This document shows, in pieces, positions 12,429-50,595 of a DNA stretch of 64,000 nucleotides. Numbering within the stretch: the stretch's first letter is position 1; every line of letters begins with the position of its first letter. The notes below the pieces were generated by a model, which was given only the letters and a program-made list of their open reading frames with translations, made no database searches and had not been told where the DNA came from. This DNA is from a virus, in IMG/VR virus record IMGVR_UViG_3300023049_000005, positions 73,053 through 137,052 of that record; one strand, 5' to 3'. The translations under genes and the position numbers were made by a program.

Positions 12429-13463
12429 TTACTTATTGAACCTAATGAATGCGTTTTGTGTCATATGAACATATTCTGCCTTTCCTATAAATTCAACGAG
12501 ATTGCGTTTACCACAATAACTCATTGCGCTTTTTAAATAGTCTCTGAAATTCTCAGTCCAACCACTAAGAGTATATTCTACTTTGCTATACTTAGTAATA
12601 CCCTCACTAGTGGTTAGTTTTTTCTTTCCCCATTTCTTTTGAACTTCTTTAGTGGACATTCCTCTATAATATGAGAATATAATTTCTCCTTCTTTAAGAA
12701 GTTTTTCGGCTTTGTTGTTAGTTATCTCTATGTAGTTATCTTTTTCTAATATGTATTTAGGTGTACATGATTCTAATGTTTTGTTTAGAATCCCACCTAA
12801 CATAATATAATTTGCGCCAACCGCTAATGCTTTAATAATATCACTGAAGTTTCTAAACCCACCATCAGCTACTATCTTAGTATCATATCCTTTAGATCTC
12901 TTGATCTTAGCACACTCTTCTACCAATGATCCCATAGGATAATGTACTGATGTGTTTGCACTAGTCGTACAAGCAGACCCACCGCCTATACCACAACGCA
13001 CATAGTCTACACCTATTTTACCATATTCTCTAAAGGTTTCAGGGTTAGCTATATTACCTATCATTAATTCTTTATCAGGGAACTTCTCTTTGTATTCCTT
13101 GGATAGATCCAATAATTTTTTCATATGACCATTAGCAACATCTACTAATAATTTTTGTGGTGGGTTTTGGTTAATGCTAATAATATCTTCGAATTCTGAT
13201 ATACTGACAGAGATAAAATACTTATCTACGTCTTCGTTTTTCCATACACTATTAGTATCTTCTGTTCTTGGTATACATACCTCAAATCCCCTTTCTAAGA
13301 ATTTATCATAGTTTTCCATATCTACTACTGTATCCATGGGTGATACGACTAAGGGTAATTTGCCCCCTTTATAGTAGATGTTTACTTCACTTCTAGATTC
13401 TATATCAGAGATTGCTGCAGGAACAATAGTAATATCATTCCAATCGAACTTTAAATTATCCAT
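12429..13463 (-). CDS. guaC: GMP reductase (GuaC; IMPDH/GMPR family without CBS domains)
   Basis: 344 aa; aligns along its length with E. coli GuaC (VDVANGH, GIGGGSACTT catalytic Cys loop, VADGG, YIMLGG, FYRGMS). Confidence 0.8.
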   Translation of the reverse strand: MDNLKFDWNDITIVPAAISDIESRSEVNIYYKGGKLPLVVSPMDTVVDMENYDKFLERGFEVCIPRTEDTNSVWKNEDVDKYFISVSISEFEDIISINQNPPQKLLVDVANGHMKKLLDLSKEYKEKFPDKELMIGNIANPETFREYGKIGVDYVRCGIGGGSACTTSANTSVHYPMGSLVEECAKIKRSKGYDTKIVADGGFRNFSDIIKALAVGANYIMLGGILNKTLESCTPKYILEKDNYIEITNNKAEKLLKEGEIIFSYYRGMSTKEVQKKWGKKKLTTSEGITKYSKVEYTLSGWTENFRDYLKSAMSYCGKRNLVEFIGKAEYVHMTQNAFIRFNK

Positions 13464-17239: not shown

Positions 17240-17875
17240 TACACTATCGATAAAATCGTCTCTTTTTTTTGGATCTTTATTGTAAATACTTTTCAATATT
17301 TCCGATACTCCTTCTTCTATTTCTATTATAGAATTACCGATATCTTTATATCTAGTTAATTTCTCATGACTTTTAGGATCTGTTATCTCGCTGTTTAAGT
17401 CATTTATGATATTAATTACCTGCGTACTAAGACTATTATACACAATTCTATCTTCTTTGTCTAAATATTTTGCACATTCATAAGTATATTCTTTTATCAA
17501 ATCCATATATGCTTTAGTTATCCAAATGAAATAGCACAATTTAACAGTTTTCACGTACATCAGGATATCATAATGTATTTTACTAATAGGAGTTAATATG
17601 ATTCTCAATAGTATATCTACCTTTTTGTCACGATGATATAAGTTATTTCCATAAACATCGTCTTTTATATCATAATAGATAGTAATTCCGTGTGAAATTA
17701 AAACGAAAAAAGCACCACATATAAGTAAAGTAATTCCTATTTTTGAATGTACGGGGATTATAATAAACGAAAACAGAAATAAAAAAGTAACAAAGAACCT
17801 TATATAAAATAAACATCTGAGAGCAGAGGTAATAAATAATGAGATTCTATTTGATGTTGTTATAGTTCTATACAT
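17225..17875 (-). CDS. Polytopic membrane protein (>=4 predicted TM helices)
   Basis: 216 aa with long hydrophobic stretches in N-terminal half. Confidence 0.45.
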   Translation of the reverse strand: MYRTITTSNRISLFITSALRCLFYIRFFVTFLFLFSFIIIPVHSKIGITLLICGAFFVLISHGITIYYDIKDDVYGNNLYHRDKKVDILLRIILTPISKIHYDILMYVKTVKLCYFIWITKAYMDLIKEYTYECAKYLDKEDRIVYNSLSTQVINIINDLNSEITDPKSHEKLTRYKDIGNSIIEIEEGVSEILKSIYNKDPKKRDDFIDSVLKTN

Positions 17876-18317
17876 CCCTTTTTATCTTACGTAATACTTC
17901 TATTTGCGTATCATGTAATATTTCAAACGCTTCTTCTATTGATACCCATTTAAAATCATCACATTCAGGAAATGGTTCTTTTAATTTTTTACCACCTAAA
18001 TATACTACCATAGAGGTACATTTGAATGGATACTCATATAAAAAGCCATCATATTTATATAAGTATGATTTAAGTTGCTTCTTCCCACTTTTATATACAA
18101 CGATGTCATATTCTTTGATATAAGAACATTTTTCTAGCTTTCTGATGTCTAGATCGGTTTCCTCTCTAAACTCTCTTATAGCAGCATCTAAATACGCCTC
18201 GTTGGGATCTGCGTTACCTTTAGGTATACTCCAAAGATTAGGATCATGATTAGTAGGGTGTTCTACTAATAGTTCTTTGTTTTTGTTAAATAGGAATATA
18301 CCACATGTTGTTTTCAT
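17868..18317 (-). CDS. Nudix hydrolase
   Basis: Nudix box GNADPNEAYLDAAIREFREETDL (Gx5Ex7REUxEE). Confidence 0.7.
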   Translation of the reverse strand: MKTTCGIFLFNKNKELLVEHPTNHDPNLWSIPKGNADPNEAYLDAAIREFREETDLDIRKLEKCSYIKEYDIVVYKSGKKQLKSYLYKYDGFLYEYPFKCTSMVVYLGGKKLKEPFPECDDFKWVSIEEAFEILHDTQIEVLRKIKRDV

Positions 18318-18335
18318 GTCACAAAAATAACTATA

Positions 18336-18779
18336 TTATTTGAATAAATAACGTATTAATTTCTTAAAATGTGGCTCAACTAAATCTAGTGCTTTTTTTC
18401 TTTTACAAAGTTTTACTTTACGTATCTCTTTTTTATCTCTTTTTCCCTTTTCTAAATCTTCATATTCTTCCTTGGTTACTTTGATAATAAAGACATGTAA
18501 GTTCTTCTTGATACCATTCTTCTTATACGTATACTTAAAAGAACTATCAACTTGTCTTAATCCTATATCAATACCCGTTTCTTCCCTCATCTCTAAATAT
18601 GCATTATGAAATAAAGACTTATCTTCTTCGACATGACCTTTAGGTATCGAATACTTTTCGTCACCTTTGAACTTTTTGGGAAGGACTAAGCATATTTTTT
18701 TATTATCTACTATTAATGCTATCCCTGCTAGTTGATGTGATTCTTCTTTAAACGTGTTATATTCCTTAATTATGTACAT
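18336..18779 (-). CDS. Nudix-like hydrolase (divergent box GHVEEDKSLFHNAYLEMREETGI)
   Basis: Second Nudix-type motif immediately upstream of the first. Confidence 0.55.
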   Translation of the reverse strand: MYIIKEYNTFKEESHQLAGIALIVDNKKICLVLPKKFKGDEKYSIPKGHVEEDKSLFHNAYLEMREETGIDIGLRQVDSSFKYTYKKNGIKKNLHVFIIKVTKEEYEDLEKGKRDKKEIRKVKLCKRKKALDLVEPHFKKLIRYLFK

Positions 18780-22419: not shown

Positions 22420-24117
22420 ATGGCGAGCTATAATCCGAATAACAGTCCAAGTTGGAGTAATAATAACACAGGAAATCAGGGATTTTTTTCGAGAGCGTTA
22501 AGAAACATCAGCAGTTGGGGCATGTACTACAATGACATGGTTTCTAAAAACAAAGTAACTATTGGTATAAATGAAGATCCTAATCAGATGTCAGGTAATG
22601 GTGGGATGTATGATTTCTTTTCACAGAGAGCCATTGCTTCTATATTAAGTCAAAAATCAGTTGCGTACTTAGATAAGAGCGTTAATGATAAAATAAGAAT
22701 ACTTAGAGAATATAGTATAAAAGACGAAATAAAAGATTTCGTAACTACTATATGTGATGAGGCTATTATTTATGATGATGAAAGAAGATTCTGTGAGCCT
22801 AAAAAACTAAAAGACGATTATCCACAAGAGGTAAAAGATAGATATTATGAGATATTCGAAGAGGTGTATAACAACTTTAATTTCTCAAATGGAAAAAGAG
22901 CTTGGGATATATTCAGAAGATTCTTAATTGATGGATATGCTGCATATGAAATTGTATGGGATGATAAAGCACAGAATATAATTGGATATGAAGAAGTAGA
23001 ACCTGTTACTCTAATGCCTGGCTATGAACCTGAATCGGGTACACATATTTGGATACAGTTTCCCGAAGACCCAACATTAAGAAGAGTGATATTAGATAGC
23101 CAAATCATATACCTTTCTTATAAATCTCATAACGAATATTCGGAGATGTCATACGTTGAGGGATTAATTAGACCATATAACCAACTTAAAATAATTGAAC
23201 AAAGTAAGATCATATTTAATATGGCTAATGCTACAATTTATCAAAAGTATGTAATACCTGTTAAAGACCTACCTAGACAAAGAGCAGAAGAAAGTGTTGG
23301 TAAGATGATTGCTAACTATTCAGAAGAAGTGAGTTGGGATGATACTATGGGTGTTCCTGAGATTAACGGAAGTAAGCATATACCTTATAATAAACAATTA
23401 TGGTTTCCTGAGGGAGAAAGTGGTACGCCACAATTTGAATTAATATCACCTGATGGTCATAACTTAAATGAAAACGATATGTTGACATGGTTTTATAATG
23501 CTTTAAAAAGAGCTAGTAATATCCCATTCTCAAGATTTGATAAAGATAATGGTGGTGGAGATATTTATGATAACAGTTCTGGAATGACTAACGATGAAGT
23601 AAAATTTGGAAACTTTGTAGGAAGATTAAGAACATCTTTTAAAGAAGTTGTTATTAAACCAATGAAACTTCAGATGCTTAGAGAATTTCCTGAGTATAAA
23701 GAAGACGCTAAACTATTAAATAGTATTGATGTAGAGTTTAATTCTAACGATCTATTCGAAGAATGGAAGCGAATTAACAACCTAAACAAACGTGTTGAAA
23801 CTGTACAGAAATTAGCAGATGCTATTGAAATAGATGGAAGACCTTATTTCCATCCTGAGTATATAGTTGATAAATACTTAAAACTTACTGAAGAAGAAAA
23901 ACAAGAAAACGAAGCATATTGGAAGAAGAAACCAATTAAAGGAGACGCAGGCGATGGATCAGGAGGTGGTGACAGCTTTGGTGGTGATGATGACTTTGGT
24001 GGTGGAGACTTCGGTGGCGATGACGATTTCGGTGGCGGTGAAGATCTAGGTGGAGAAGACCTAGGCGGTGGCGCAGATGAAGGCGGTGGAGAAGACGTTG
24101 GTGATTTCGAATTCTAA
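22420..24117 (+). CDS. Portal protein, T4 gp20-like, with Gly/Asp-rich C-terminal repeats
   Basis: 565 aa; NQLKIIEQSKIIFNM / KDLPRQRAEESVGKMIAN parallels T4 gp20 NQLKLLEDAVVIYRI / GNMPARKAAEHMQHVMN; position in portal-protease-scaffold-MCP module. Confidence 0.7.
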   Translation: MASYNPNNSPSWSNNNTGNQGFFSRALRNISSWGMYYNDMVSKNKVTIGINEDPNQMSGNGGMYDFFSQRAIASILSQKSVAYLDKSVNDKIRILREYSIKDEIKDFVTTICDEAIIYDDERRFCEPKKLKDDYPQEVKDRYYEIFEEVYNNFNFSNGKRAWDIFRRFLIDGYAAYEIVWDDKAQNIIGYEEVEPVTLMPGYEPESGTHIWIQFPEDPTLRRVILDSQIIYLSYKSHNEYSEMSYVEGLIRPYNQLKIIEQSKIIFNMANATIYQKYVIPVKDLPRQRAEESVGKMIANYSEEVSWDDTMGVPEINGSKHIPYNKQLWFPEGESGTPQFELISPDGHNLNENDMLTWFYNALKRASNIPFSRFDKDNGGGDIYDNSSGMTNDEVKFGNFVGRLRTSFKEVVIKPMKLQMLREFPEYKEDAKLLNSIDVEFNSNDLFEEWKRINNLNKRVETVQKLADAIEIDGRPYFHPEYIVDKYLKLTEEEKQENEAYWKKKPIKGDAGDGSGGGDSFGGDDDFGGGDFGGDDDFGGGEDLGGEDLGGGADEGGGEDVGDFEF

Positions 24118-24638: not shown

Positions 24639-26885
24639 ATGAAAAACGTATTAATCATTGAACATAATCCTACTTCATTAAAACCCATTAATGAATCAGC
24701 AGGAAAAGGTCAAGAAGATAAGTATACATTAGGAGGCGTATTTACAGAATTTGACAAAAAGAATAGAAACGATAGGGTCTATACTTGGAGTAAGTTCGAA
24801 CCTGCATTAAACGAATTAAATGAAAGAATCAGCACAATGGGTGTATACGGTGAGTATGATCATCCCGATACTTTTGATACTTCATTAAAGAATGCATCAC
24901 ACATGGTTGAAACGGCTTCTTATGACGAAAAAAACAATTGTGTTACAGGAAAAATCAGATTACTTAATACTCAGTGGGGTAAAGAAGCAAAAGCATTGGT
25001 TGAAGATAATTCACCTTTATTCGTTTCTTCGAGAGCTGCAGGTATTACAGAAGGTAATGGTGAAGTAACACTTAAAAAATTATTCACATATGATATTGTG
25101 GCAGATCCAGGATTTTCCTCTGCTAGAATGCAATCATTGAATGAATCTATGGGCTATTCATCAAATTCCAACTTTCAAATATATGAAATGGATGATGAAA
25201 CAAAAATTAATCAATTATTTGAAATGAACAAAAATGATATGGTAACAAAACAGCAAATGGTAGATTACTCTGAGTATTTAGTAGAAAACATCAAAGAGGT
25301 GAAAGCTAAAATCAACGAATCTATCAAAACAGGTCAAATTCAACCTAAAAAATTAAATGAATTAACACAGTATTACGAAAGAATGCTTGAAGAACAAAAT
25401 AAGATGACTAAGTACTTAGATTACTTAGCTGAAAATTTACAAGTTGTAGTAAAAGAAAACATAGAATTAAAAGAAAGTAATTCTAAGTTAGAAAAAACTA
25501 CTAACAACCTTATTAAGCATAATGATTATTTAGCTGAAAACTTAGAGAAGTCTATTGAATTCTCTGATTATATTGCTGAGGAATTAGATAAGTCTGTAGA
25601 ATACAGTGAGTATATCGCTGAGGAATTAGATAAGTCTATCCAATATGGTGAGTATATCGCTGAGGAATTAGATAAGTCTATCCAATATGGTGAATACATT
25701 GCTGAAAACTTAAACAAATCTATTGAATTCTCTGATTATTTAGCTGAGAATTTAGATAACTCAATCGTATATTCTGAATATTTAGCTGAAAACATTGATA
25801 CTAATATCAAGTACTCTGAATACATTGCTGAGAATTTAGATAGCGGTTTAGCATACACTGATTATGTTGCTGAACAATTAGATAAGTCTATTGAATACAG
25901 CAAAATGATTACAGAAAAATTAAACGAATCATCTAGTAAATTATTTGAAAGCGTTGAGGGCGAAGAAATGGATGGATTTCCATCACCTGATATCGTAGGT
26001 CTTTCTGAACTAGAAATGGATATGGAAGAAGATGAAGATGAGGATGAAGATAATTTGGATATCAACGTTGATGTTGATGTTGAAATTGAAGGATCTGAGG
26101 ATGACGTAAACTGCAGAGTAGTTTGTGATGATGACGAAGATGTAAATATAGATGATACTCCCGAATTAGAAGAAGGTGAAACAGAAGAAATTATTTCTGA
26201 TGAGCTTGATGAAGAAGAAGAGGAAATGGAAGAAAAGGAAGAATTAGAAGAAGCAATTTCTGAAGAAGTTTCACAAGAAGAAGCACACGACGAAGATAAA
26301 GACGAGTGTAAAGACTGTGAAGAAGAAAAAGAAGAAGAAGAAGAAGAAGATTTAATGATGGAAAATAATCTATCAAAATCTATCGACCAATTAATATTAG
26401 AAGCTAAAAAACGAGAAGCTTCTAAGACAAACGAACCTAATTTCTTGTCGTTTTTAAATAAAGATCAGTTAGATTCATTCTACGCTTTAGAGAACGATGA
26501 TAGAGAATTAGTTATTGCCCATATAAACGAGAAGGGTAATTATTATTCTACAAGTGATGTACTAACTCTTATGAACGAAGCATTAGCTACGAAAGAGAAG
26601 AGTTTAGAGGAACGTTTAGTCGATGAAATGCCTGAGGAAGTTAAGGACAAATGGGAAAAGATTACAGAATCTGCAAAGAACTCAATATTGAGTCAAGCTA
26701 GATTACATCCTACTACTAATTGGAATGAAGCGACTATGGAGCATTTTTGGTTAACTCGTAAGTTCCCTGCGATCAGAGAGTCAAACCGTGAATTGATCAA
26801 CAAAGAAGATAGATTAATCCTAGAGGATAGTTTATCAGATGATGCGATGAATTCAATTATGGAGAAATTTAATTCAATTAAATAA
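24639..26885 (+). CDS. Prohead core protease (T4 gp21-like) fused to a repetitive coiled-coil/acidic scaffold-like region
   Basis: N-terminal LGGVFTEFDKKNRNDRVYT ... GEYDHPD parallels gp21 FGGVFTG...NGRIYT...GEFNHPD; ~10 tandem 14-aa units (YIAEELDKSIxYxE) then poly-acidic tract. Confidence 0.7.
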   Translation: MKNVLIIEHNPTSLKPINESAGKGQEDKYTLGGVFTEFDKKNRNDRVYTWSKFEPALNELNERISTMGVYGEYDHPDTFDTSLKNASHMVETASYDEKNNCVTGKIRLLNTQWGKEAKALVEDNSPLFVSSRAAGITEGNGEVTLKKLFTYDIVADPGFSSARMQSLNESMGYSSNSNFQIYEMDDETKINQLFEMNKNDMVTKQQMVDYSEYLVENIKEVKAKINESIKTGQIQPKKLNELTQYYERMLEEQNKMTKYLDYLAENLQVVVKENIELKESNSKLEKTTNNLIKHNDYLAENLEKSIEFSDYIAEELDKSVEYSEYIAEELDKSIQYGEYIAEELDKSIQYGEYIAENLNKSIEFSDYLAENLDNSIVYSEYLAENIDTNIKYSEYIAENLDSGLAYTDYVAEQLDKSIEYSKMITEKLNESSSKLFESVEGEEMDGFPSPDIVGLSELEMDMEEDEDEDEDNLDINVDVDVEIEGSEDDVNCRVVCDDDEDVNIDDTPELEEGETEEIISDELDEEEEEMEEKEELEEAISEEVSQEEAHDEDKDECKDCEEEKEEEEEEDLMMENNLSKSIDQLILEAKKREASKTNEPNFLSFLNKDQLDSFYALENDDRELVIAHINEKGNYYSTSDVLTLMNEALATKEKSLEERLVDEMPEEVKDKWEKITESAKNSILSQARLHPTTNWNEATMEHFWLTRKFPAIRESNRELINKEDRLILEDSLSDDAMNSIMEKFNSIK
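25540..25910 (+). repeat. Tandem array of ~42-nt (14-codon) repeats inside the protease-scaffold gene
   Basis: Repeated gattatattgctgaggaattagataagtct... units visible directly. Confidence 0.7.
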
Positions 26886-26980: not shown

Positions 26981-28693
26981 ATGATAAACTTAGACAAAAC
27001 AGTAAAAAAATGGACTCCAATTCTAGAGAATATGGGAGTTGAGGGATCTGATCGTTTAGATTGGATGTCAGAGTACGCAGAGTATCATTCATTGAATGAA
27101 AATGCTTATGCAAACTTAGGTAATTTTAATGGCATGGGCGGTGTAGCTAACCCAACGGTAGCTGCTAACCCAGGTAATGCATTAGGAGTTACAGATTTCA
27201 GCAGAGGATACAATGCTGATGGAAATTCAGGCTCAGGTGACTACGGTCAGCAATTATTGCCTGTTGCGATGAAAATTGCTGCACAAACAATTGGTTTAGA
27301 CCTAGTAAGCGTAAAGCCTACACCTGGTCCAAAAATTGATTTAATGTACATCGATTTCGCATACGATGATAACACAAACGAAACAAATGAAAGACCTCAG
27401 GTTTTTGCTATTGATTTCGGAGCTAATGCAGGTGCATTGGAAACTTTCCTTAATGCAGCTTCAGCAGAAGCAGGTGCTATCCAAAGAGTAGGTGGTTTAA
27501 CTGAGAGAGTATATCTTTCATTAAATGACGCTGCGGCTAACGCACAAACAGGTTATGATCCAGGTGTTGCACCTGTTGGATCAAAACAATCATGGGTTGA
27601 ATTCTTAGGATACTCTCGTATCGATAGAAAGCCTATGTTCAGAATTTTCCGTCAGGCTAACGTAGCAACAGCTACTACAGGTTCTGCATGGGGATTTGTA
27701 CAAGCTGATAACACTTTTACAACTGATGAGGTATTAACTACTGTATTCGGTGGTGGATTTGGTGACACAGCAGGTGGCGCAACTTCTGCAACAGGTTCTA
27801 GCACAAGCTTAGAATTAGTGTCTGCATTAGAAGATCACTTACCTGCATTTGCAGCAAACTTTGCTTCTGACAAATATCCTCAAACAAGAGAACAAGAAGA
27901 AACTAATTACCCAGGAATTATTGCTCCTAGAGTACAATCTAAGACAATCCAAGCGGGGACATTAGAAATTTCTACTGCTCTTAAGAGAACTGAGATAGAA
28001 GATATCAAAGCAAACTTAGGTATCGATATCGTTCAAAAAATGGAGTCAATCCTTGTGAACGAATTATCACAAACTATCTCTAAGCAAATAGTTGAAAAAT
28101 TATTTGAAATGGGTGACTTAAACCGTCAGTCTGCACCTGGTTACACAACTGCAACTGCTGCTACAACAGTATTTGATTTAGACGTTGATGCATACCTTGG
28201 ATCATCTGCTTCGCCAGGTGGTGAAACTTCTCACGCTGTACAAAGAAGATTAGTGACTAAAATCCTTAATTCTTCTAACTACTTAGCAACAGAAGGTCGT
28301 GTAGGTCCTGCTCAGTTCGTAGTTACTAACGGACGTTTAGCTGCTGCTTTAGCTGACATCGCAGGTTATACAATTAACCCTGTGAAATCTAAAGTAAATG
28401 GTTCAGGTCAACTGTATCCAATGGGTACAATCGGAGACGTTCAAATTTACGTTGATCCTTACATGTTATATAATGATAACAGAATGTTAGTAGGACGTAA
28501 GAACAATCCTGACCAACCAGGTATCGTATTCGTACCATACTTAATGGCTCAGTCAATCAGCTTATTATCTGAAGCTACATTCGCACCAAGAATGTTGTTA
28601 AGATCTAGATATGCGATTGCAGAGTTAGGATTTTATCCACAAAAACAATATATGACAGTTAAAGTTGTAGATACTAATAATATCTTAGCGTAA
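26981..28693 (+). CDS. Major capsid protein, T4 gp23-like
   Basis: 570 aa; KKWTPILENMGVEG and IGLDLVSVKPTPGPKIDLMYIDF parallel gp23 NKWKPLLEGEGL and LIAFDICGVQPMNSPTGQVFAL; followed by strong terminator. Confidence 0.8.
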   Translation: MINLDKTVKKWTPILENMGVEGSDRLDWMSEYAEYHSLNENAYANLGNFNGMGGVANPTVAANPGNALGVTDFSRGYNADGNSGSGDYGQQLLPVAMKIAAQTIGLDLVSVKPTPGPKIDLMYIDFAYDDNTNETNERPQVFAIDFGANAGALETFLNAASAEAGAIQRVGGLTERVYLSLNDAAANAQTGYDPGVAPVGSKQSWVEFLGYSRIDRKPMFRIFRQANVATATTGSAWGFVQADNTFTTDEVLTTVFGGGFGDTAGGATSATGSSTSLELVSALEDHLPAFAANFASDKYPQTREQEETNYPGIIAPRVQSKTIQAGTLEISTALKRTEIEDIKANLGIDIVQKMESILVNELSQTISKQIVEKLFEMGDLNRQSAPGYTTATAATTVFDLDVDAYLGSSASPGGETSHAVQRRLVTKILNSSNYLATEGRVGPAQFVVTNGRLAAALADIAGYTINPVKSKVNGSGQLYPMGTIGDVQIYVDPYMLYNDNRMLVGRKNNPDQPGIVFVPYLMAQSISLLSEATFAPRMLLRSRYAIAELGFYPQKQYMTVKVVDTNNILA

Positions 28694-28778: not shown

Positions 28779-30401
28779 ATGGAACAAAAGTTACTTGAAA
28801 TATTTGAAAGTCCTCATAGGATGAGGGAAACGTATGTTAAAAAACATCACCCAAGTCTATATGATAGTATTATATCATATGTGGATTTTGACATTTCTTT
28901 CAAAGAAAAGCTTTGGTATTACTATAATAAACTAGAAGAAAAAATTACATGTAAGTGTGGTAAGGAAACTACGTTCAATAAGAATTTTAAAGACGGTTAT
29001 AAAAAATATTGCTCTGCTAAATGCGCACAGACAGCCGAATCTACTAAAGAAAAAAGAAAGAAAACTACTTTACATAAATATGGTGTTGATAATGTAGCTA
29101 AAAGTCAGAAAATTAAAGACAAGACCGAAGAAACCAATATCGAAAGGTATGGTCATAGATCTACGTTTCAAAATAAAGAAGTTCAGAGCAAATGGAAGGA
29201 AAATATTAAAAACAAATATGGCGTTGATCATATCTTCCAATCAGAGGAAGTAAAAGGAAAGATACAAGATACTATGAAGGAAAGGTATGGTGGACATTAT
29301 ACCAAAACCGATCATTATACAGATAAGCTTGGTGAAATTGGATTCAAGGAACTAATAAGGAAAAAGAAGTTAGATAAACACAAAGATTTTTTTAAAACAC
29401 ATGGTTATGAGTTTATAGAAATTAAAGATTATAGGAAATTCACCATAAAAAAGGATGATGATATATTCGAAATATATTGGGAAACTTTTATAAATAGGCT
29501 AGAAAACGGATATGAAATATCTACTAATATAAACCCATTATATTATACAGGTCAAAGTGAAAAGGAAAAGGAACTCATATCATGGATTAGGACATTGGGT
29601 GTAGAAATCGATGAATCTAATAGAAAAATACTAAATGGTAAAGAAATAGATATATTTCTACCTGAATATAAATTAGGAATAGAATTCAATGGTTTATATT
29701 GGCATAGTGAAATGAATAAAGAAAAGAAACATCATATAAACAAAACAAAACAGTTAAATGAATTAGGAATTAGTTTGGTACACGTATGGGAGGATGATTG
29801 GGATCATAAAAAAAATATAATACAATCTATTATTCTTAATAAGTTAAATAAAATATCTAATAAGATATATGCTAGAAAGTGTATTATAAAAGAAGTAAAT
29901 AGTAAGGAAACTAATTCCTTTTTAGATAAAAACCATATACAAGGTAAGTCAAAGGCTAATATTAAATTAGGTCTATATTATAGAGATGAATTAGTTAGCC
30001 TAATGACGTTTGGTTATCGTAATATAAACGGAACTAAGCAATATGAACTGATTAGGTTTTGTAATAAAATAAATAATATTGTCGTTGGGTCAGCTTCTAA
30101 ATTATTTAAATATTTTATTAATAATTATAATTATGATAACATCTTATCATACTCTGATATAAGTATGTTTGATGGCAAATTATATGAAATGTTAGGATTC
30201 GAAAACATGGGGGAAACTTCTCTAAACTATTGGTGGGTTGTTGATAAAAAGAGGTATCATCGGTTTACATATAATAAGAAAAAGTTGATCAAAGAAGGAC
30301 ATGACCCAAACTTGACAGAAAAGGAAATTATGTATTCTCTAGGTAATTATAGAATTTGGGGATGTGGTCAAATTAGGTGGGTATATAAAAAACGATATTA
30401 A
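28779..30401 (+). CDS. Homing-endonuclease-like multidomain protein (zinc ribbon + KYG... repeats + Vsr/DUF559-type PD-(D/E)XK nuclease domain + conserved C-terminal domain)
   Basis: 540 aa; CKCG..CSAKC; IDIFLPEYKLGIEFNGLYWHSE...LVHVWEDDW nuclease core; paralog of 48871..50595. Confidence 0.6.
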   Translation: MEQKLLEIFESPHRMRETYVKKHHPSLYDSIISYVDFDISFKEKLWYYYNKLEEKITCKCGKETTFNKNFKDGYKKYCSAKCAQTAESTKEKRKKTTLHKYGVDNVAKSQKIKDKTEETNIERYGHRSTFQNKEVQSKWKENIKNKYGVDHIFQSEEVKGKIQDTMKERYGGHYTKTDHYTDKLGEIGFKELIRKKKLDKHKDFFKTHGYEFIEIKDYRKFTIKKDDDIFEIYWETFINRLENGYEISTNINPLYYTGQSEKEKELISWIRTLGVEIDESNRKILNGKEIDIFLPEYKLGIEFNGLYWHSEMNKEKKHHINKTKQLNELGISLVHVWEDDWDHKKNIIQSIILNKLNKISNKIYARKCIIKEVNSKETNSFLDKNHIQGKSKANIKLGLYYRDELVSLMTFGYRNINGTKQYELIRFCNKINNIVVGSASKLFKYFINNYNYDNILSYSDISMFDGKLYEMLGFENMGETSLNYWWVVDKKRYHRFTYNKKKLIKEGHDPNLTEKEIMYSLGNYRIWGCGQIRWVYKKRY

Positions 30402-31573: not shown

Positions 31574-32404
31574 TTATTTTAATCCTTTCACAACAGTAGT
31601 GCCTGCCCCGTATACATTATCAGTACCGTAAGGAGAACCTTTACCTTCTCTGAATCCTTGCCACTTTACGTATTCGTTATACTGTGGTGATCTAGCAAGT
31701 TGTTTTTGGATAAGTTGAATGTATTGAGATTCACCTTCTGCTTCTAATATAGTAGCTTGTTTAGTACCTTCTGCTTTCTTAATAGTAGCATTAGCTATGT
31801 ATTCTTGTTCTAATTCTAGTTCTTTAGCTCTTTGGTTTTTCTGCTTTTGTTCCTCTTTGCCCGTAATTGCTTTTCTTACATTATCAGGTAAGGTAACATC
31901 TGCGATCTCACAGAAATGATAGTCAATATAATTAGATCTAAATTCTCTGTCCATAAGCTCATCAAGTTCTAATTCTAAGGCTTCTCTTTTAGTAGAATAA
32001 ATTTCTTCATATGTATATCTACCAATGACATTCTTAATAGCTCCCTTTACAATAGGATCAATATAACTAGTTTCATATCCTACACCATGTTTTAAATGGA
32101 GTTTAGGTGTCTTATATTTAGCAGGGCTATAGTTAACTGTGATATCTACTGTGATATCCATTCCATTCTTTTCCATCACCGAGGATGAATAGTTTCTACT
32201 TTGTTGTAGAACATTATACCTAATAAGGTCATTCCAAGGTGCGATAAGCTGTGCGCCTTCTTTATAAACTGTTGATGTGTCTACACCATCATTATCCCAT
32301 GGTCTAAACATAAATGCTTCCTGACCAGGATCTACAACGTTAACACATGATGTCATTGATATTACTGCGATAGACATCGCAAAGATTTGAATTACTTTTT
32401 TCAT
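31574..32404 (-). CDS. SPFH/band-7 (prohibitin-like) lipoprotein
   Basis: 276 aa; signal peptide + lipobox MTSC; PHB-like core and C-terminal coiled-coil (QKQKNQRAKELELEQEY). Confidence 0.5.
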   Translation of the reverse strand: MKKVIQIFAMSIAVISMTSCVNVVDPGQEAFMFRPWDNDGVDTSTVYKEGAQLIAPWNDLIRYNVLQQSRNYSSSVMEKNGMDITVDITVNYSPAKYKTPKLHLKHGVGYETSYIDPIVKGAIKNVIGRYTYEEIYSTKREALELELDELMDREFRSNYIDYHFCEIADVTLPDNVRKAITGKEEQKQKNQRAKELELEQEYIANATIKKAEGTKQATILEAEGESQYIQLIQKQLARSPQYNEYVKWQGFREGKGSPYGTDNVYGAGTTVVKGLK

Positions 32405-32478
32405 ATTATTTTTATTTAATTTATATTAGACTATAAATATATGAATAAAAAAAGACCCAAACAAGGTTTAGGTCTTTT

Positions 32479-32861
32479 TTTAATGGAGTGGAGATGGAGG
32501 GAGTCGAACCCTCGTCACAGACACTTTAGTATAATACTTTCTACAAGTTTAGTTTACATAGTTAGGGTAAACACCTTAGTTAAACTTATTTTTTTAAACT
32601 GTTCTAATCAAACCAAAATTCAGTCCTTCTTATAATAACTGCTAAGAAGTTTGCAGCTTGGAGTTTTGTCGGTTGCTTAGACAGCTAATACAAGTTCTCC
32701 GTCTTGTACAGATTCCGTAGAATCTAATGCGTCTAAAACGTCAATCTTTTCAGATACTACGTTTAATTGTTTATCTACTAATTTATTAATCGGACACTTT
32801 AATAGACAATCCGATACTTGCTTACACTATCTGAAAATGACGCTCTAATCCAGTCACCCCC
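32479..32861 (-). ncRNA. ssrA: tmRNA (SsrA), phage-encoded
   Basis: 5' GGGGGUGACUGGAUU... pairs with 3' ...CAUCUCC-A (7 bp incl. G3-U70), T-arm GAGGGUUCGACUCCCUC, candidate tag frame ending ...GELVLAV-UAA at 32677..32730. Confidence 0.7.
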
Positions 32862-32926
32862 ATTTAAGTTTCATTATTTTATATATAAAAATATTAGAAT
32901 AAGTTTTAGCAAAATTAAATAAAAGA

Positions 32927-33481
32927 ATGGATAATAACAAATTAATAGTATTAGATATAGACGAAACTCTATTTCATTGTGAATATGAATTAGAGGATTT
33001 TGACTATGTGTTCGAAGAAGATAATATTATGTACTATACTAAGAAAAGACCTTATCTAGAAGAGTTTCTGAATTATATTAAAGGAAATTTCAAGTATGGT
33101 ATCTATACTACAGCAGGTGAAGATTATACTAAAATACACATGAAAAAGCTGAATTTAGACCCATTATTCCTCCTATCTTATAAAAATTGTACCCAAAAAA
33201 GGAAATTTAGTATGGGTGAGCAGAATGGATATACTTCTGAATGGTACTCATTAAAGAAACTTGATAAAGTAAAAAGGTATAGTGATAAATCTAATATGAT
33301 TGCTATCGATGATAAATGGGAAAGTTTTGCTAATGATTACGGAAACTTAATTAAAGTGAATCCTTTTACGGGTGATATAAATGATACTACCTTAAAGAAA
33401 CTTATGAAATATTTAGAAGATCTTAAAGGTGTGAAAAATATTAGAAAGGTTGAGAAACGGGGTTGGATGAGTAAATATTAA
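32927..33481 (+). CDS. HAD-superfamily phosphatase, NIF/FCP1-like
   Basis: 184 aa; LIVLDIDETLFH (DxDxT), KRPYLEEFL, IAIDD. Confidence 0.6.
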   Translation: MDNNKLIVLDIDETLFHCEYELEDFDYVFEEDNIMYYTKKRPYLEEFLNYIKGNFKYGIYTTAGEDYTKIHMKKLNLDPLFLLSYKNCTQKRKFSMGEQNGYTSEWYSLKKLDKVKRYSDKSNMIAIDDKWESFANDYGNLIKVNPFTGDINDTTLKKLMKYLEDLKGVKNIRKVEKRGWMSKY

Positions 33482-42228: not shown

Positions 42229-44466
42229 ATGAAAAAATTCTTAATTAAATTAATCTATAAATGTATAGAGCTTATAGAAAGGATAGAATATAGAAACCAT
42301 ATATTAGACGAAGATGATAATGATTATAAAATATTATCTGAACATGATGTTTATGGGTATAAAGTTAAATCTGATTCGGGTTATATTGATATTAGTAAAA
42401 TGATGATCACACAACCATATACTCATTATTATTTAGAGTTAGAAAATGGGATGAATTTGACTTGTGCTGATAATCATAGAATATTTGATCAATATTTAAG
42501 TGAAATGTTTGTGAAACACTTAAAGGTAGGTGATAAAATATCTACTGAATCAGGTATATCTAAAGTTAAGATAATAAAGAAATTGAAAAGAAAGACTTCT
42601 ATGGTTGATATTACAGTTGATCATGAAGACCATAGGTATTATACAAATGGTATATTAAGTCATAACACAGTATGTGCGGCTATTTATATATTACATTATA
42701 TGATGTTTAATAATAATAAAAACGTACTTATTGCTGCGAATAAATTAGAAACATCACAAGAAGTACTTGATAAAATTAAGACACTTTATAGTTACATTCC
42801 ATTGTTTTTAAAACAAGGTATTGATACATGGAATGTAAATAGGATAAAATTTGAGAACGGATGTAGAGCTAAAGCATTCGCAATGACGAAAAATGCTTCT
42901 ATTGGTAATGCGGGTGACTTAGTATATGTTGATGAGTTTGCCCATATTAATAATAATATAGCAGATAAATTCTATAAATCTATTTTCCCTACTTTAGCAT
43001 CTATCGAAAATTCTAAAATGATTATTACATCGACACCTGATGGATATAACCTATTTCATAAACTATTAACAGATGCTGAGAGAGAAATATCAGATCCATT
43101 GAAGAATGAGTTTACACCATTGAGGGTTTATTGGCATCAAGTACCTGGTCGTAATGTAACTTATTTCAAGATAAACCAACATTTATTATTACAACAGAAT
43201 TTAGATTTAGATTCGGTCTTTGAACAATTGAAAGAAATATATAACCCTAACGATGATGTCAATTCTAATAATATTCCTCTTGTAACAAAGAAAACACAAA
43301 GTATTAATAGGAAAACATGGATACATGTACAGAACACAGAAAGATTAAAATATGATGATCTTAAAAATACTTCTGTGGTCAATAGAGATGGTGAAAAAAT
43401 ATTTTGTTCTACATTCTGTGATGGTATTTCTACTTGGAAATTAGATGCAATTAAGAATATTGGTGGTGAGGATAACTTTAATCAAGAATATGATCTTCGT
43501 TTCGCATCAGGGTCTAGAAGTGTATTAAAAGAAGAAACCATTGAAAGAATTACTAATAGTAAACAAAAGTATAGACATATTAATGGATTAGAAGAATTCG
43601 ATAAATTAAAATGGGATTATAGCTCATTAAAATTCGCTAAAGATTGGGATGAAGATATGAGAAAGAATATGTATGGTATGATCTCCGTCGATGTATCTGA
43701 GGGATTAGGTCAAGATTATAGTGTAATTAATATGTTCAGATTAGGATATAAATCACAAGAAATAATAGAAGAACAAAAGGAACACTATTCAGTAAGAGAA
43801 GACTTTTTTCAATTAACTCAATTTGGATTATTTAGATCTAATATAATTAGTGTAGAGCAACTTGCTGAGATACTTTATGTATTGATATTCGAATTTTTTG
43901 ATCCTGATAAAATGAAAGTAGTTGTTGAATATAACAATGACGGAAAGACATTATTGAATGCTATTAAGAACGTATTCAACAGAGAGAATGATTATAGTAC
44001 TTATGTTATGTTAAAATTTAAACATCGATTAGATGCTGTTGATCGAAAGGTAGGTCTGAAAGTAGGACTTAATAAAAATAAGTTTGTTAAAGATTATCAG
44101 TTAATGTTAGAAGATCAGACTATTTTAGTTAGTGAAGAGAATACTATCAAAGAGATATCTACCTTTATTTCACATGAAACAGCAGCAGGGAATGTGATTT
44201 ATAGAGGGGATGGTTCTAATGATGACTTAGCTATGACTATTGTGAATCTAACACAAGGTTGGAGAAACAGATCATTTAAAGATACTGTATTAGATTTCAT
44301 GGATAATGAACCGAATAATATTATAAATAAATTAATAGCTGAGGTATTAGAAAAGGAGAAGTCTATTGGAACAGATTATGGATCTTTTTTTAAGGGTAAG
44401 AAAAATTACACAAATTATAATACTAGAAATTTTAGAGGGGGTATAGACCCTAAATCACTTATTTAA
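42229..44466 (+). CDS. terL: Large terminase subunit (T4 gp17-like) C-terminal portion preceded by a mini-intein; N-terminal ATPase segment not encoded upstream
   Basis: From residue 146 aligns with gp17 right after Walker A (TVCAAIYILHY..., Walker B LVYVDEFAHI, ITSTPDGYN); residues ~12-145 carry intein blocks B (GMNLTCADNHRIF) and F/G (VDITVDHEDHRYYTNGILSHN|T). Confidence 0.8.
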   Translation: MKKFLIKLIYKCIELIERIEYRNHILDEDDNDYKILSEHDVYGYKVKSDSGYIDISKMMITQPYTHYYLELENGMNLTCADNHRIFDQYLSEMFVKHLKVGDKISTESGISKVKIIKKLKRKTSMVDITVDHEDHRYYTNGILSHNTVCAAIYILHYMMFNNNKNVLIAANKLETSQEVLDKIKTLYSYIPLFLKQGIDTWNVNRIKFENGCRAKAFAMTKNASIGNAGDLVYVDEFAHINNNIADKFYKSIFPTLASIENSKMIITSTPDGYNLFHKLLTDAEREISDPLKNEFTPLRVYWHQVPGRNVTYFKINQHLLLQQNLDLDSVFEQLKEIYNPNDDVNSNNIPLVTKKTQSINRKTWIHVQNTERLKYDDLKNTSVVNRDGEKIFCSTFCDGISTWKLDAIKNIGGEDNFNQEYDLRFASGSRSVLKEETIERITNSKQKYRHINGLEEFDKLKWDYSSLKFAKDWDEDMRKNMYGMISVDVSEGLGQDYSVINMFRLGYKSQEIIEEQKEHYSVREDFFQLTQFGLFRSNIISVEQLAEILYVLIFEFFDPDKMKVVVEYNNDGKTLLNAIKNVFNRENDYSTYVMLKFKHRLDAVDRKVGLKVGLNKNKFVKDYQLMLEDQTILVSEENTIKEISTFISHETAAGNVIYRGDGSNDDLAMTIVNLTQGWRNRSFKDTVLDFMDNEPNNIINKLIAEVLEKEKSIGTDYGSFFKGKKNYTNYNTRNFRGGIDPKSLI
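42262..42663 (+). mobile_element. Mini-intein (Hint domain, no endonuclease domain) in terminase P-loop
   Basis: Cys12 ... block B TxxH-type ... terminal HN followed by Thr; ~134 aa. Confidence 0.65.
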
Positions 44467-48870: not shown

Positions 48871-50595
48871 ATGCTATCAAAGGAATTCATAAAAGAGTTC
48901 AATTTCAATAATAAGTCAGGTAAGATGTCTAGTTCTAAATATGTATCAAAGAACTATGCTGCGGATTATGATATTATTATAGGTAATATTAAAGAAGATA
49001 TCTCATTTAAAGAGAAAGTATATCTAACTGTTAATGATATTAACCATTCTCCTAATTGTAAGAATCCTAATTGTAATGACAAGGTAAAATTCAGAAATAC
49101 TACTTTAGGGTATAGAGAGTATTGTTCTAATAAATGTATTGGTTCAGATCCTAATATGATCAAAAGAAAAGAACAAAAGTCTTTAGAAAAGTTTGGCACA
49201 AAAACACCTGCCGAATCAGAAGTAATCAAACAAAAAATGATCAATACTAATAATAAATTATATGGTGGTAATTCTCCTATGTCAAATAAAGAAATTCAAG
49301 AGAAATCTAAGAAAACTTTAATGGGTAATTGGGGTGTAGAAAACCCTAACAGACATAAAGATTTAACAGAAAAAAGAATTAAGAGTTTTAAAAAAAATAT
49401 AGATCAGTTTAAGGCTTCTTTCAAAGAAACTAGCTTAAAGAAATATGGTGTGGAACACCATTGGATGGTTAAAGAAATACACGATAAAGGAATTAAAACT
49501 ACTAATAAGAAAAAACTTCAAAAGGAAGAAACTAAAATTAAAAAGAGGATACCAAGTGATTATAAATTACTTGGAATATTCAAAGAAAGTGAATTACATA
49601 ACAGAACAAGTAGTAGGATGTTATGTAATAAGGGTCATGAATTTGTCATAAATAATGATCTTTTATATCATAGGACAGTTAAAAACGATACAGTGATATG
49701 TACTGAATGTCATCCTCAAAATAATAGAAGTGTAAGTGGATTAGAATTACAACTACTTAATTTCATCGAAGAAAGTTATGAAGGTGAAATCATAACTAAT
49801 AATAGAACTATTATACCGCCACACGAAGTAGATATTTATCTACCTGAAATCAAATTAGCTATTGAATTTAATGGTCTTTTTTGGCATAGTGAGATCAATA
49901 AGGACAAGTATTATCACTTCAATAAAACTAATGAAGCTGAGAAAGAAGGCATACAGATGTTACATATTTGGGAAGACGATTGGCTATTGAAGGATGATAT
50001 AGTTAAATCTATGTTAAAGAATAAATTCAATAATACTCCTAATAAAGTATTTGGTAGAAAATGTAAAATTAAAAAAGTTGGCTCTAAGGAATACAGAGAA
50101 TTCTTAGATAATAATCATATACAAGGTTATTCTAATTCTACTTACTCGTATGGTTTGTATTATAACGAAAAATTAGTTAGTCTAATGACCTTTTCTAAAC
50201 CAAGGAATATGATGGGACATAAAAGTAGAGATAATGTTTATGAGTTAGCTAGGTTTTGTAATAAGACTAATTACAATATAGTAGGTGGTGCTTCTAAATT
50301 ATTTAAACACTTTATAAAAGAACATTCTCCTAAAGAAATATATTCTTTTAGTGATAGGTCATATTCTAATGGTAATCTTTATAAGATATTAGGGTTTGAA
50401 TATAGTCACAGAAGTAAAATAAATTACCATTGGGTATTAAACAAAGAGAGAAAGCATAGATATAATTTTGCTAAACATAAACTAGTAGAAAAGGGATACG
50501 ATCCCAATTTATCAGAAAGGGAAATTATGTATGAACAAGTGGGTGCTTATAGAATATGGAATAGTGGTCAAGATAAGTGGGTTTATCACATATAG
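48871..50595 (+). CDS. Homing-endonuclease-like multidomain protein, paralog of 28779..30401
   Basis: 574 aa; CKNPNC..CSNKC, EVDIYLPEIKLAIEFNGLFWHSE...LHIWEDDW, shared C-terminal domain (YRIWNSGQDKW). Confidence 0.6.
   Translation: MLSKEFIKEFNFNNKSGKMSSSKYVSKNYAADYDIIIGNIKEDISFKEKVYLTVNDINHSPNCKNPNCNDKVKFRNTTLGYREYCSNKCIGSDPNMIKRKEQKSLEKFGTKTPAESEVIKQKMINTNNKLYGGNSPMSNKEIQEKSKKTLMGNWGVENPNRHKDLTEKRIKSFKKNIDQFKASFKETSLKKYGVEHHWMVKEIHDKGIKTTNKKKLQKEETKIKKRIPSDYKLLGIFKESELHNRTSSRMLCNKGHEFVINNDLLYHRTVKNDTVICTECHPQNNRSVSGLELQLLNFIEESYEGEIITNNRTIIPPHEVDIYLPEIKLAIEFNGLFWHSEINKDKYYHFNKTNEAEKEGIQMLHIWEDDWLLKDDIVKSMLKNKFNNTPNKVFGRKCKIKKVGSKEYREFLDNNHIQGYSNSTYSYGLYYNEKLVSLMTFSKPRNMMGHKSRDNVYELARFCNKTNYNIVGGASKLFKHFIKEHSPKEIYSFSDRSYSNGNLYKILGFEYSHRSKINYHWVLNKERKHRYNFAKHKLVEKGYDPNLSEREIMYEQVGAYRIWNSGQDKWVYHI

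Follow-up and report, generated by a model that had tools for sequence, protein, structure and literature searches.

Transfer-messenger RNAs (tmRNAs), encoded by ssrA genes, have been reported from phages since at least 2014. They are documented in the Bxz1-like mycobacteriophages and in phage G (PMC4131195), and also for huge phages as a group (PMC7162821), so that a gene of this kind, taken alone, is an expected item of the huge-phage translation toolkit. Phage genes for SmpB have also been reported by Al-Shayeb et al. (PMC7162821). A hydrophobic last residue is the norm in the encoded tags (PMC4131195), and the tag of Bacillus phage G ends in ...QVA (PMC12484599). The gene described here lies on the minus strand of a stretch of viral DNA of 64,000 nucleotides (nt), positions 73,053 to 137,052 of the IMG/VR record IMGVR_UViG_3300023049_000005, which is referred to as the window. 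It is a real and complete one-piece tmRNA gene, and the DNA around it is that of a T4-like huge phage of lytic type from the Mahaphage lineage, on a contig of 206,690 bp. The original prediction for this stretch, made by a model from the letters alone, had proposed a tmRNA on this strand and had called phage tmRNAs rare. The second statement was too strong: a single 23-mer scan of IMG/VR matched 55 viral contigs, and ARAGORN reports a tmRNA on 43 of them, some of which may lie at prophage-host junctions.

The phage Bxz1, from the cluster C mycobacteriophages (PMC4131195), is likewise a large myovirus with tRNA genes and a full-length one-piece tmRNA. Its tag ATDTDATVTDAEIEAFFAEEAAALV, as read by ARAGORN on the fetched Bxz1 genome, has 25 amino acids (aa), 7 of them acidic, and ends in ...AAALV, a close parallel to the 27 aa, 7 acidic residues and the end ...VLAV in the window. 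The host of Bxz1, however, belongs to the Actinomycetota, the phage lineage is unrelated, and a sequence relationship between the two RNAs is undetectable. A tblastn search with the Bxz1 tag found nothing. The location also differs. The Bxz1 gene sits inside an array of more than 25 tRNA genes, whereas that of the window is 32 kb away from a cluster of six tRNA genes, in the accessory region that separates capsid and terminase genes.

Identity and architecture of the gene

ARAGORN finds one tmRNA, at 32488..32861 on the minus strand, with the tag VVSEKIDVLDALDSTESVQDGELVLAV followed by a stop. The Rfam family RF00023 matches 32486..32861 of the same strand with 59.3 bits, where the gathering score is 47, and an E-value of 1e-20. 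This match spans model positions 1-374 of 374 without truncation, which makes the RNA a member of the family, and no other Rfam family comes near its own threshold within the tmRNA stretch. Both searches had been named as checks in the original prediction, and these two independent detectors agree on a full-length tmRNA on the strand that it gave. Together with the sequence itself, they delimit a gene of 373 nt at 32489..32861, whose first base is G1 (32861) and whose last is the discriminator A373 (32489). RNA positions (p) are counted from G1, the window coordinate being 32862 minus the position. The minus strand begins at 32861 with GGGGGUGACUGGAUUAGAGCG and ends with ...GAGGGUUCGACUCCCUC-CAUCUCC-A, the last base being 32489; the same end is read as ...GACGAGGGUUCGACUCCCUCCAUCUCCA. 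The CCA is not in the gene, as the bases after the discriminator are CUC. An end at 32479 and a length of about 383 nt had been proposed; the surplus 10 nt are trailer, and 373 nt is the length without CCA. In a second assembly (contig L121, 206,690 bp; ENA ERZ27315366, k141_4805), which is 99.9% identical to the window, the tmRNA is unchanged.

The tRNA-like domain is complete. The acceptor stem has 7 bp, in which GGGGGUG (p1-7, 32855..32861, the P1 columns of the Rfam alignment) pairs with CAUCUCC (p366-372), including G3:U370 and G5:U368. A G3:U pair is the alanine identity pair. The T-arm, the acceptor 3' strand and the discriminator occupy 32489..32513 (p349-365, 366-372 and A373) with an Rfam posterior of about 1, and the T-arm itself is formed by GAGGG/CCCUC (p349-353 / 361-365) around the loop UUCGACU. 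The D-loop analogue is ACUGGAUUA, of the UGGAUU type. The acceptor pairing with its wobble and discriminator A, the T-arm and the 5' UGGAUU are thus all present as originally described. The 5' strand of helix P2 (p17-46, 32816..32845) pairs with p314-347 (32515..32548) according to the Rfam alignment and manual pairing. The helix opens with the tandem G17.A347 / A18.G346, a pair type typical of tmRNA, and comprises the segments GCAAGU/ACUUGU and UAGUGUAA/UUAUACUA.

Pseudoknot 1 follows P2 directly, at 32771..32815, and was located with a search for H-type pseudoknots. Its stem 1 is AUCGGA/UCCGAU (p47-52 / 68-73), its stem 2 is UUGUCUAUUAA/UUAGUAGAUAA (p53-63 / 81-91), and its loop 3 is UAAUAAA. 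Dinucleotide shuffles give 18.9 +/- 4.9, whereas this pseudoknot scores 36, a value reached by 1 of 300 shuffles; the layout also occurs in the tmRNAs of other large phages and of Bacteroidota. By the same search, pseudoknot 2 was placed at 32626..32658 (p204-236), with AGCUGC/GCAGUU (p204-209 / 220-225) as stem 1 and CUUCUUA/UAAGAAG (p213-219 / 230-236) as stem 2. Its score is 30; shuffles give 17.1 +/- 7.5, and none of 300 reached this value. Before the P2 3' strand, a hairpin GUUUAC-CCUAACUAU-GUAAAC can be drawn at 32552..32572 (p290-310), where the Rfam posterior is low. It would occupy the place that the final stem of the last pseudoknot has in the compared tmRNAs. A minimum-free-energy fold of the whole molecule fails to recover the tmRNA architecture, which is to be expected for an RNA with pseudoknots. 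In that fold, the tag end with the stop codon (AGCUGUCUAAGCAACCG, p176-192, 32686-32670) pairs over a long range with UGGUUUGAUUAGAACAGUU (about p247-266, 32615-32596), and this pairing surrounds pseudoknot 2. It could be a closing helix like that of H5/pseudoknot 2, masking the stop codon, or it could have arisen by chance.

The gene is followed by an intrinsic terminator on the same strand, at 32447..32481. According to RNAfold it consists of an A-run, a 10-bp GC-containing stem (32475-32466 / 32462-32453), the loop CUU and a U-run (32452-32447), and the stem proper begins 13 nt past the tmRNA 3' end. The fold has -18.7 kcal/mol with z = -7.1, none of 200 shuffles folds as well, and A:U pairing of the flanking runs extends it to 17 pairs; the terminator is likely bidirectional. 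A scan with sigma-70 promoter and terminator consensus patterns gave 5 promoter-like sites, against 4.0 expected, and called no terminator. A candidate promoter on the minus strand, at 32910..32941, has TTTG, a 20-nt spacer and TAATTTTG, a pattern that we take to be the Bacteroidota consensus. Its end lies 48 nt upstream of G1, and it overlaps the start of a divergent NIF phosphatase gene. With 4 occurrences of the Bacteroidota -33/-7 motif in the window and 2.7 expected, there is no enrichment, so that this promoter is only tentative; two or three of the four matches directly precede minus-strand genes. Nor does the T4 late-promoter motif TATAAATA show enrichment (31, with 26.4 expected in the window), and none is found upstream of the tmRNA.

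A 64-aa open reading frame (ORF) had been reported on the plus strand at 32441..32635. It starts with ATG and reads ...MEWRWRESNPRHRH..., antisense to the 3' half and tRNA-like domain of the tmRNA. The view that this place codes for a protein, or that it is no more than an incomplete tmRNA copy serving a phage for attachment (attP), has an extremely low probability. In temperate phages attP often consists of the 3' end of a tmRNA gene, and an ATG-initiated ORF does exist here. The ORF, however, has no PHROG match, the gene callers left its interval empty on the contig of the second assembly, and its start falls in the stem of the terminator hairpin. The tmRNA, for its part, is full length with its own 5' half, the genome is T4-like, and no Pfam integrase domain was seen on the genes called in the inspected 72 kb or so (about -8000 to 64000 in window coordinates). 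Both readings were rejected on these grounds. The ORF is spurious, as the original prediction had held, and the annotation is corrected by placing an RNA gene there.

Reading frame and resume codon of the tag

The tag frame comprises 27 codons at 32680..32760 on the minus strand, from GUA (p102-104, 32760..32758) to the last codon GUC, and is closed by UAA at 32677..32679 (p183-185), as given by ARAGORN and by translation. The open frame ending in ...QDGELVLAV-UAA that the original prediction had noticed is therefore real. The complete tag is most likely an alanine, from the charged tmRNA, followed by VVSEKIDVLDALDSTESVQDGELVLAV, with GUA102 as the predicted resume codon. The encoded part contains 7 acidic residues and 1 basic residue in 27 aa, has a net charge of -6 and ends in LAV.

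Three features point to GUA102, namely its distance from pseudoknot 1, the bases before it and the location of the rival codon GAU87 within a stem of that pseudoknot. The codon lies 10 nt past the pseudoknot. Seven other large-phage tmRNAs have a gap of 11 nt; among Bacteroidota, the range is 10-15 nt for the seven tmRNAs in which pseudoknot 1 was correctly placed by a finder run without a resume-codon constraint; four further Bacteroidota tmRNAs, for which the finder chose a spurious structure overlapping the tag, are left out of this range. In E. coli the gap is 12 nt (PMC2481249). The hexamer at -6 to -1 of GUA102 is UUAAAC, which is identical in five of the six Flavobacteriaceae tmRNAs examined, where it precedes GGC (Aquimarina, Formosa, Polaribacter, Winogradskyella and Myroides). 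In Bacteroidales and Sphingobacteriia the corresponding hexamer is UUAAUU or AUAAUU. UUAAAC retains U(-5) and A(-4), the frame-setting positions in E. coli (PMC2481249).

The frame is open well upstream of the tag start, and therefore no stop codon fixes that start. The tag of this tmRNA might then begin elsewhere, either at GAU 32775 (32 codons, DKQLNVVSEK...LAV) or at GCA 32730 (17 codons, ALDSTESVQDGELVLAV). GAU is preceded by UUAGUA, which resembles the UAGUC of E. coli, and GCA, the commonest resume codon, is preceded by UUAGAC. However, GAU is placed inside stem 2 of pseudoknot 1, GCA is located 40 nt past that pseudoknot instead of the 10-15 nt seen in the correctly placed comparison tmRNAs, and the Flavobacteriia hexamer stands before GUA. 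Another start is accordingly unlikely, and it would be compatible with a functional tmRNA as proposed below. GAU87, the choice of the Rfam alignment, was rejected because of its position in the stem.

Comparison with other tmRNAs and predicted function

With the ssrA genes of Flavobacteriia and other Bacteroidota, the window tmRNA shares the order of its parts: an acceptor with G3:U, the D-loop analogue, P2, pseudoknot 1, a linker of 10-15 nt, the resume codon, the tag, the stop, at least one further pseudoknot and the T-arm. The end of P2, GUAAGCA, is also common to them. The differences are nevertheless considerable. The window tmRNA is only 39-45% identical to Bacteroidota tmRNAs, while the Flavobacteriaceae tmRNAs are about 70% identical among themselves, and because of this it is, judged by sequence, not a recent capture from a host, though the frame-setting context of Flavobacteriia is shared. 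Its length of 373 nt compares with 391-398 nt in the Flavobacteriales and Prevotella tmRNAs, and its resume codon is GUA (Val) instead of the GGC of Flavobacteriia. Unlike the Bacteroidota genes, it belongs to a phage, and no SmpB gene was seen nearby. The tag differs most visibly, the near-invariant 9-codon GExNYALAA of the host phylum contrasting with an acidic tag of 27 codons, three times as long, with a net charge of -6 and the end LAV. A genome-wide scan for GExNYALAA followed by a stop returned at least 120 stretches, nearly all from Bacteroidota among the matches listed, and ARAGORN read GE[N/D/Y]NYALAA in 11 of 12 sampled tmRNAs. In Bacteroides, the tag GETNYALAA is a strong degron (10.1101/2025.03.18.644028).

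The tmRNAs of other large phages resemble that of the window in more respects. The huge phages, phage G and the IMG/VR phages compared here (L038/L054, L080-L098 and L096) have, like the window phage, genomes of about 200 kb or more with tRNAs and translation genes. The compared large-phage tmRNAs share the architecture of pseudoknot 1, with a 7-nt loop 3 starting with UAA and a linker of 10-11 nt ending in UAAAY, and their tags are long too (24-31 aa). By their capsids, L038 and L054 are of one lineage with the window phage (57% identity), and they too have the tmRNA a few kb downstream of the capsid gene. The window tmRNA is, however, only 45-51% identical to any of the compared large-phage tmRNAs, and tag sequence, strand and neighbours differ. 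In contrast to the huge phages with SmpB, none was found in the inspected part of the window phage genome. As for the tags, that of L096 (254 kb) ends in ...VVEEIELMELV, and those of L038 and L054 end in ...KVNEVASVA. The end LAV, originally described as non-canonical, does differ from host tags, but it is not unusual for a phage tmRNA when Bxz1, phage G and the IMG/VR tags are considered. The window gene is not alone in having a long, acidic tag with an end other than AA.

A separate lineage of IMG/VR contigs (L080, L081, L082, L084, L091 and L098, about 45-290 kb) carries the tmRNA beside tRNA genes, with arrays of 15 or more tRNAs on four of the six. Its tag has 24 codons and reads A[V/E]E[L/K]S[T/S][M/F]TF[E/A]DAMAFVGAD[Y/L]AVAA. 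Between L081 and L082 the tags show 9 synonymous and 3 non-synonymous codon differences, mostly synonymous in the C-terminal half, and because of this excess the codon sequences indicate that the long tags of this lineage are under selection as peptides. Together, the tags of the window, of Bxz1 and of the other large phages suggest that phage tags have a logic of their own, which to our knowledge nobody has examined. A tentative idea, to which we give a rather low probability, is that large-phage tmRNAs systematically replace the host ...ALAA degron with a long acidic tag bearing another hydrophobic end (LAV, ALV in Bxz1, ELV in L096), and would thus form a distinct functional class and not drifted copies. 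If this were true, phage trans-translation would free ribosomes and mark the products differently from host tagging. ClpXP-type degradation of the tagged products might then be avoided or slowed, a different protease or adaptor might receive them, or they might be neutralised by other means.

What the analysis shows directly is the identity and structure of the gene, its phage surroundings, the reading frame of the tag and the contrast with host-type tags; from these we infer expression, charging, use of SmpB, ribosome rescue and the fate of tagged proteins. The best explanation, with a probability of roughly 0.8, is a working phage tmRNA which would free stalled ribosomes during infection with the help of host alanyl-tRNA synthetase (AlaRS), SmpB, EF-Tu and CCA-adding enzyme, and which would add its own tag. 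The tmRNA would be transcribed as its own unit and end at the strong hairpin terminator. RNase P would trim the 5' end, the 3' trailer would be removed, and CCA-adding enzyme would supply the CCA. Host AlaRS would charge the RNA with alanine through the G3:U pair and, with host SmpB, the RNA would enter ribosomes stalled on broken or stop-less mRNAs. Translation would resume at GUA (32760), the nascent chain would gain A-VVSEKIDVLDALDSTESVQDGELVLAV, and the ribosome would be freed at UAA. The likely benefit for the phage is a bigger pool of free ribosomes in infection, when mRNA cleavage yields many non-stop messages. The hydrophobic LAV end is probably still a protease signal, possibly weaker than the host ...YALAA or otherwise targeted. 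The original prediction had suggested that an altered tag could re-route ClpXP tagging during infection. In E. coli, SsrA variants with a final V (AAV, ASV) still serve as degradation tags, though weaker ones (PMC11003136).

Several observations weigh against a working tmRNA of this kind. The RF00023 alignment is poor in the central region, with an average posterior of 0.52, and it puts the resume codon 15 nt upstream of GUA102, at GAU. The original prediction had proposed mapping the frame and the pseudoknots; the frame and pseudoknots 1 and 2 could be placed, but for pseudoknots 3 and 4 there are only the hairpin at p290-310 and weak candidates, in a part where the Rfam posterior is low. The later pseudoknots (2 to 4) of tmRNA are experimentally replaceable with activity kept (PMC2481249). 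No SmpB domain (PF01668) was found on the called genes of the inspected regions, and tblastn with an approximate E. coli SmpB query gave nothing significant. The function would therefore depend on a heterologous host SmpB, while the tRNA-like domain is unlike that of Flavobacteriia tmRNAs, in keeping with the low overall identity. The main weakness is that no close homologue of the window tmRNA was found in IMG/VR, in JGI metagenome contigs, in GenBank phages or at the loci of SPFH relatives.

The requirement for host SmpB is also the basis for a different role. As a decoy, the RNA might mainly deprive the host tmRNA of SmpB, AlaRS or stalled ribosomes and so blunt a host response dependent on trans-translation, the tag being incidental. 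With no phage SmpB gene in the inspected regions, the RNA must compete for the host protein, and the mycobacteriophage DS6A has a tRNA-like domain only, a type of molecule that inhibits tmRNA (PMC4131195). A decoy, however, would need none of the tagging parts, and all of them are kept in the window tmRNA: the spacing from pseudoknot 1, UUAAAC, an open frame of 27 codons, a hydrophobic end and a stop. In the L080-L098 lineage, moreover, the tag appears to be under purifying selection as a peptide. Such a decoy is improbable.

No search for close relatives of the tmRNA was successful. The exact 21-mer of the 5' end has no match in IMG/VR, blastn of the locus against 50,697 GenBank phages gave nothing, and a two-anchor pattern built from both ends of the tRNA-like domain retrieved only one unrelated, GC-rich tmRNA from 241 million JGI metagenome records. 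In IMG/VR there are no relatives of the SPFH and NIF proteins encoded on either side, and no tmRNA is adjacent on the contigs of the best SPFH homologues. Neither gene nor tag is conserved among related phages, the sole other copy found being the identical one in the second assembly. A tmRNA is missing from the corresponding region of the two nearest relatives by capsid (82% and 76% identity) and of one relative with the SPFH gene, and the more distant L038 and L054 have one with an unrelated tag. Its place in the tmRNA family is not affected by this. The gene could also be a decaying passenger, acquired from a bacterium or another phage into a variable accessory region and devoid of function; the lack of conservation of the locus, a nearby homing-endonuclease-like gene and the poor alignment of the central part to the family model would all suit this. 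The conserved elements are nevertheless intact, pseudoknots 1 and 2 are well formed, and the gene has its own strong terminator. It is also identical in two assemblies that differ elsewhere, and its distance from Bacteroidota tmRNAs argues against recent capture. A passenger is thus about as improbable as a decoy, and a functional tmRNA remains the preferred explanation. The gene adds a well-resolved tmRNA to a Mahaphage-related lineage that probably infects Bacteroidota.

Genomic surroundings and probable host

Phage genes stand on both sides of the tmRNA. The window encodes a T4-type portal (22420-24117; PF07230, E 3e-64), a prohead protease/scaffold protein (24639-26885), the Gp23 major capsid protein (26981-28693; E 4e-30) and the terminase (42229-44466), as well as gp32-like and sheath-like proteins. 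Downstream of the Gp23 gene, the tmRNA is reached after 3.8 kb, and the terminase gene follows 9.4 kb further on. With about 61 kb between it and the nearer end of the 206,690-bp contig, the tmRNA is interior and hence not at a prophage-host junction. The best GenBank matches of the capsid protein are uncultured phages of 634-735 kb (LR745206, LR756502, LR756504 and LR756501, 48-58% identity), followed by the Tenacibaculum phages PTm1 and PTm5, and then by Prevotella Lak phages and Chryseobacterium phages. Genomes above 634 kb and the Lak phages have been placed in the 'Mahaphage' clade, with predicted Bacteroidetes hosts (PMC7162821).

Two neighbouring genes are given as context only. Downstream of the tmRNA, on the same strand and after the terminator, an SPFH/Band 7 (prohibitin-like) gene occupies 31574..32404 (PF01145, E 3e-22). 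The best named cellular homologues of its product are prohibitins of Flavobacteriales and other Bacteroidota, with 50-63% identity. Because the capsid relatives and the SPFH homologues both point there, the phage probably infects a low-GC bacterium of the Bacteroidota, plausibly a Flavobacteriia-like one. SPFH proteins of the HflK/C type regulate FtsH, which also degrades SsrA-tagged proteins. A functional tie between the SPFH gene and the tmRNA would nonetheless be pure speculation, and relatives have the SPFH gene without the tmRNA. Upstream, the divergent neighbour on the plus strand is a gene for a NIF-type (CTD-like) phosphatase (32927..33481; PF03031, E 3e-30), which is an unusual gene for a phage.

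The interval from capsid to terminase contains one of two paralogous homing-endonuclease-like genes, both on the plus strand, at 28779-30401 and 48871-50595 (DUF7487, PHROG 3339, E 1e-126); the first directly follows the capsid gene. They fit the idea that this interval is variable and prone to mobile elements. The prohead protease gene has internal repeats at 25272-25937, with many off-diagonal tblastx matches, and harbours the only variable spot between the two assemblies, a 42-nt indel with 18 clustered single-nucleotide polymorphisms at 25572-25647. A gene called as 2199 aa begins at 60075 on the minus strand and leaves the window beyond 64000; no Pfam match is recorded for it, and since it is cut by the locus end it may be unsearched.

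The sole tRNA cluster is located at 223-745 of the window and comprises six genes (three Lys-UUU, one Lys-CUU and two Phe-GAA). None of them encodes CCA, which is also the case for the tmRNA. One of the 'Lys-UUU' genes (305-393) has 89 nt and a long variable arm like that of a class II tRNA, which is odd for a tRNA-Lys. After the array, at about 720-745, there is a tRNA 3' fragment with the T-arm GTGGGTTCGAATCCCAC, which resembles that of the 89-nt gene. The phage also carries genes of nucleotide metabolism, encoding adenylosuccinate synthase, an IMPDH/GMP-reductase-like protein, two NUDIX proteins and phosphoribosyl pyrophosphate synthetase, and just upstream of the window a gene for a sigma-70 region-2 protein; these nucleotide-metabolism and sigma-70 genes are placed at 802-1926, 12429-13463 and 17868-18779 of the window and at 2675-4532 of L252, upstream of it. 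With such a sigma-70 region-2 protein, the phage may have a promoter specificity of its own.

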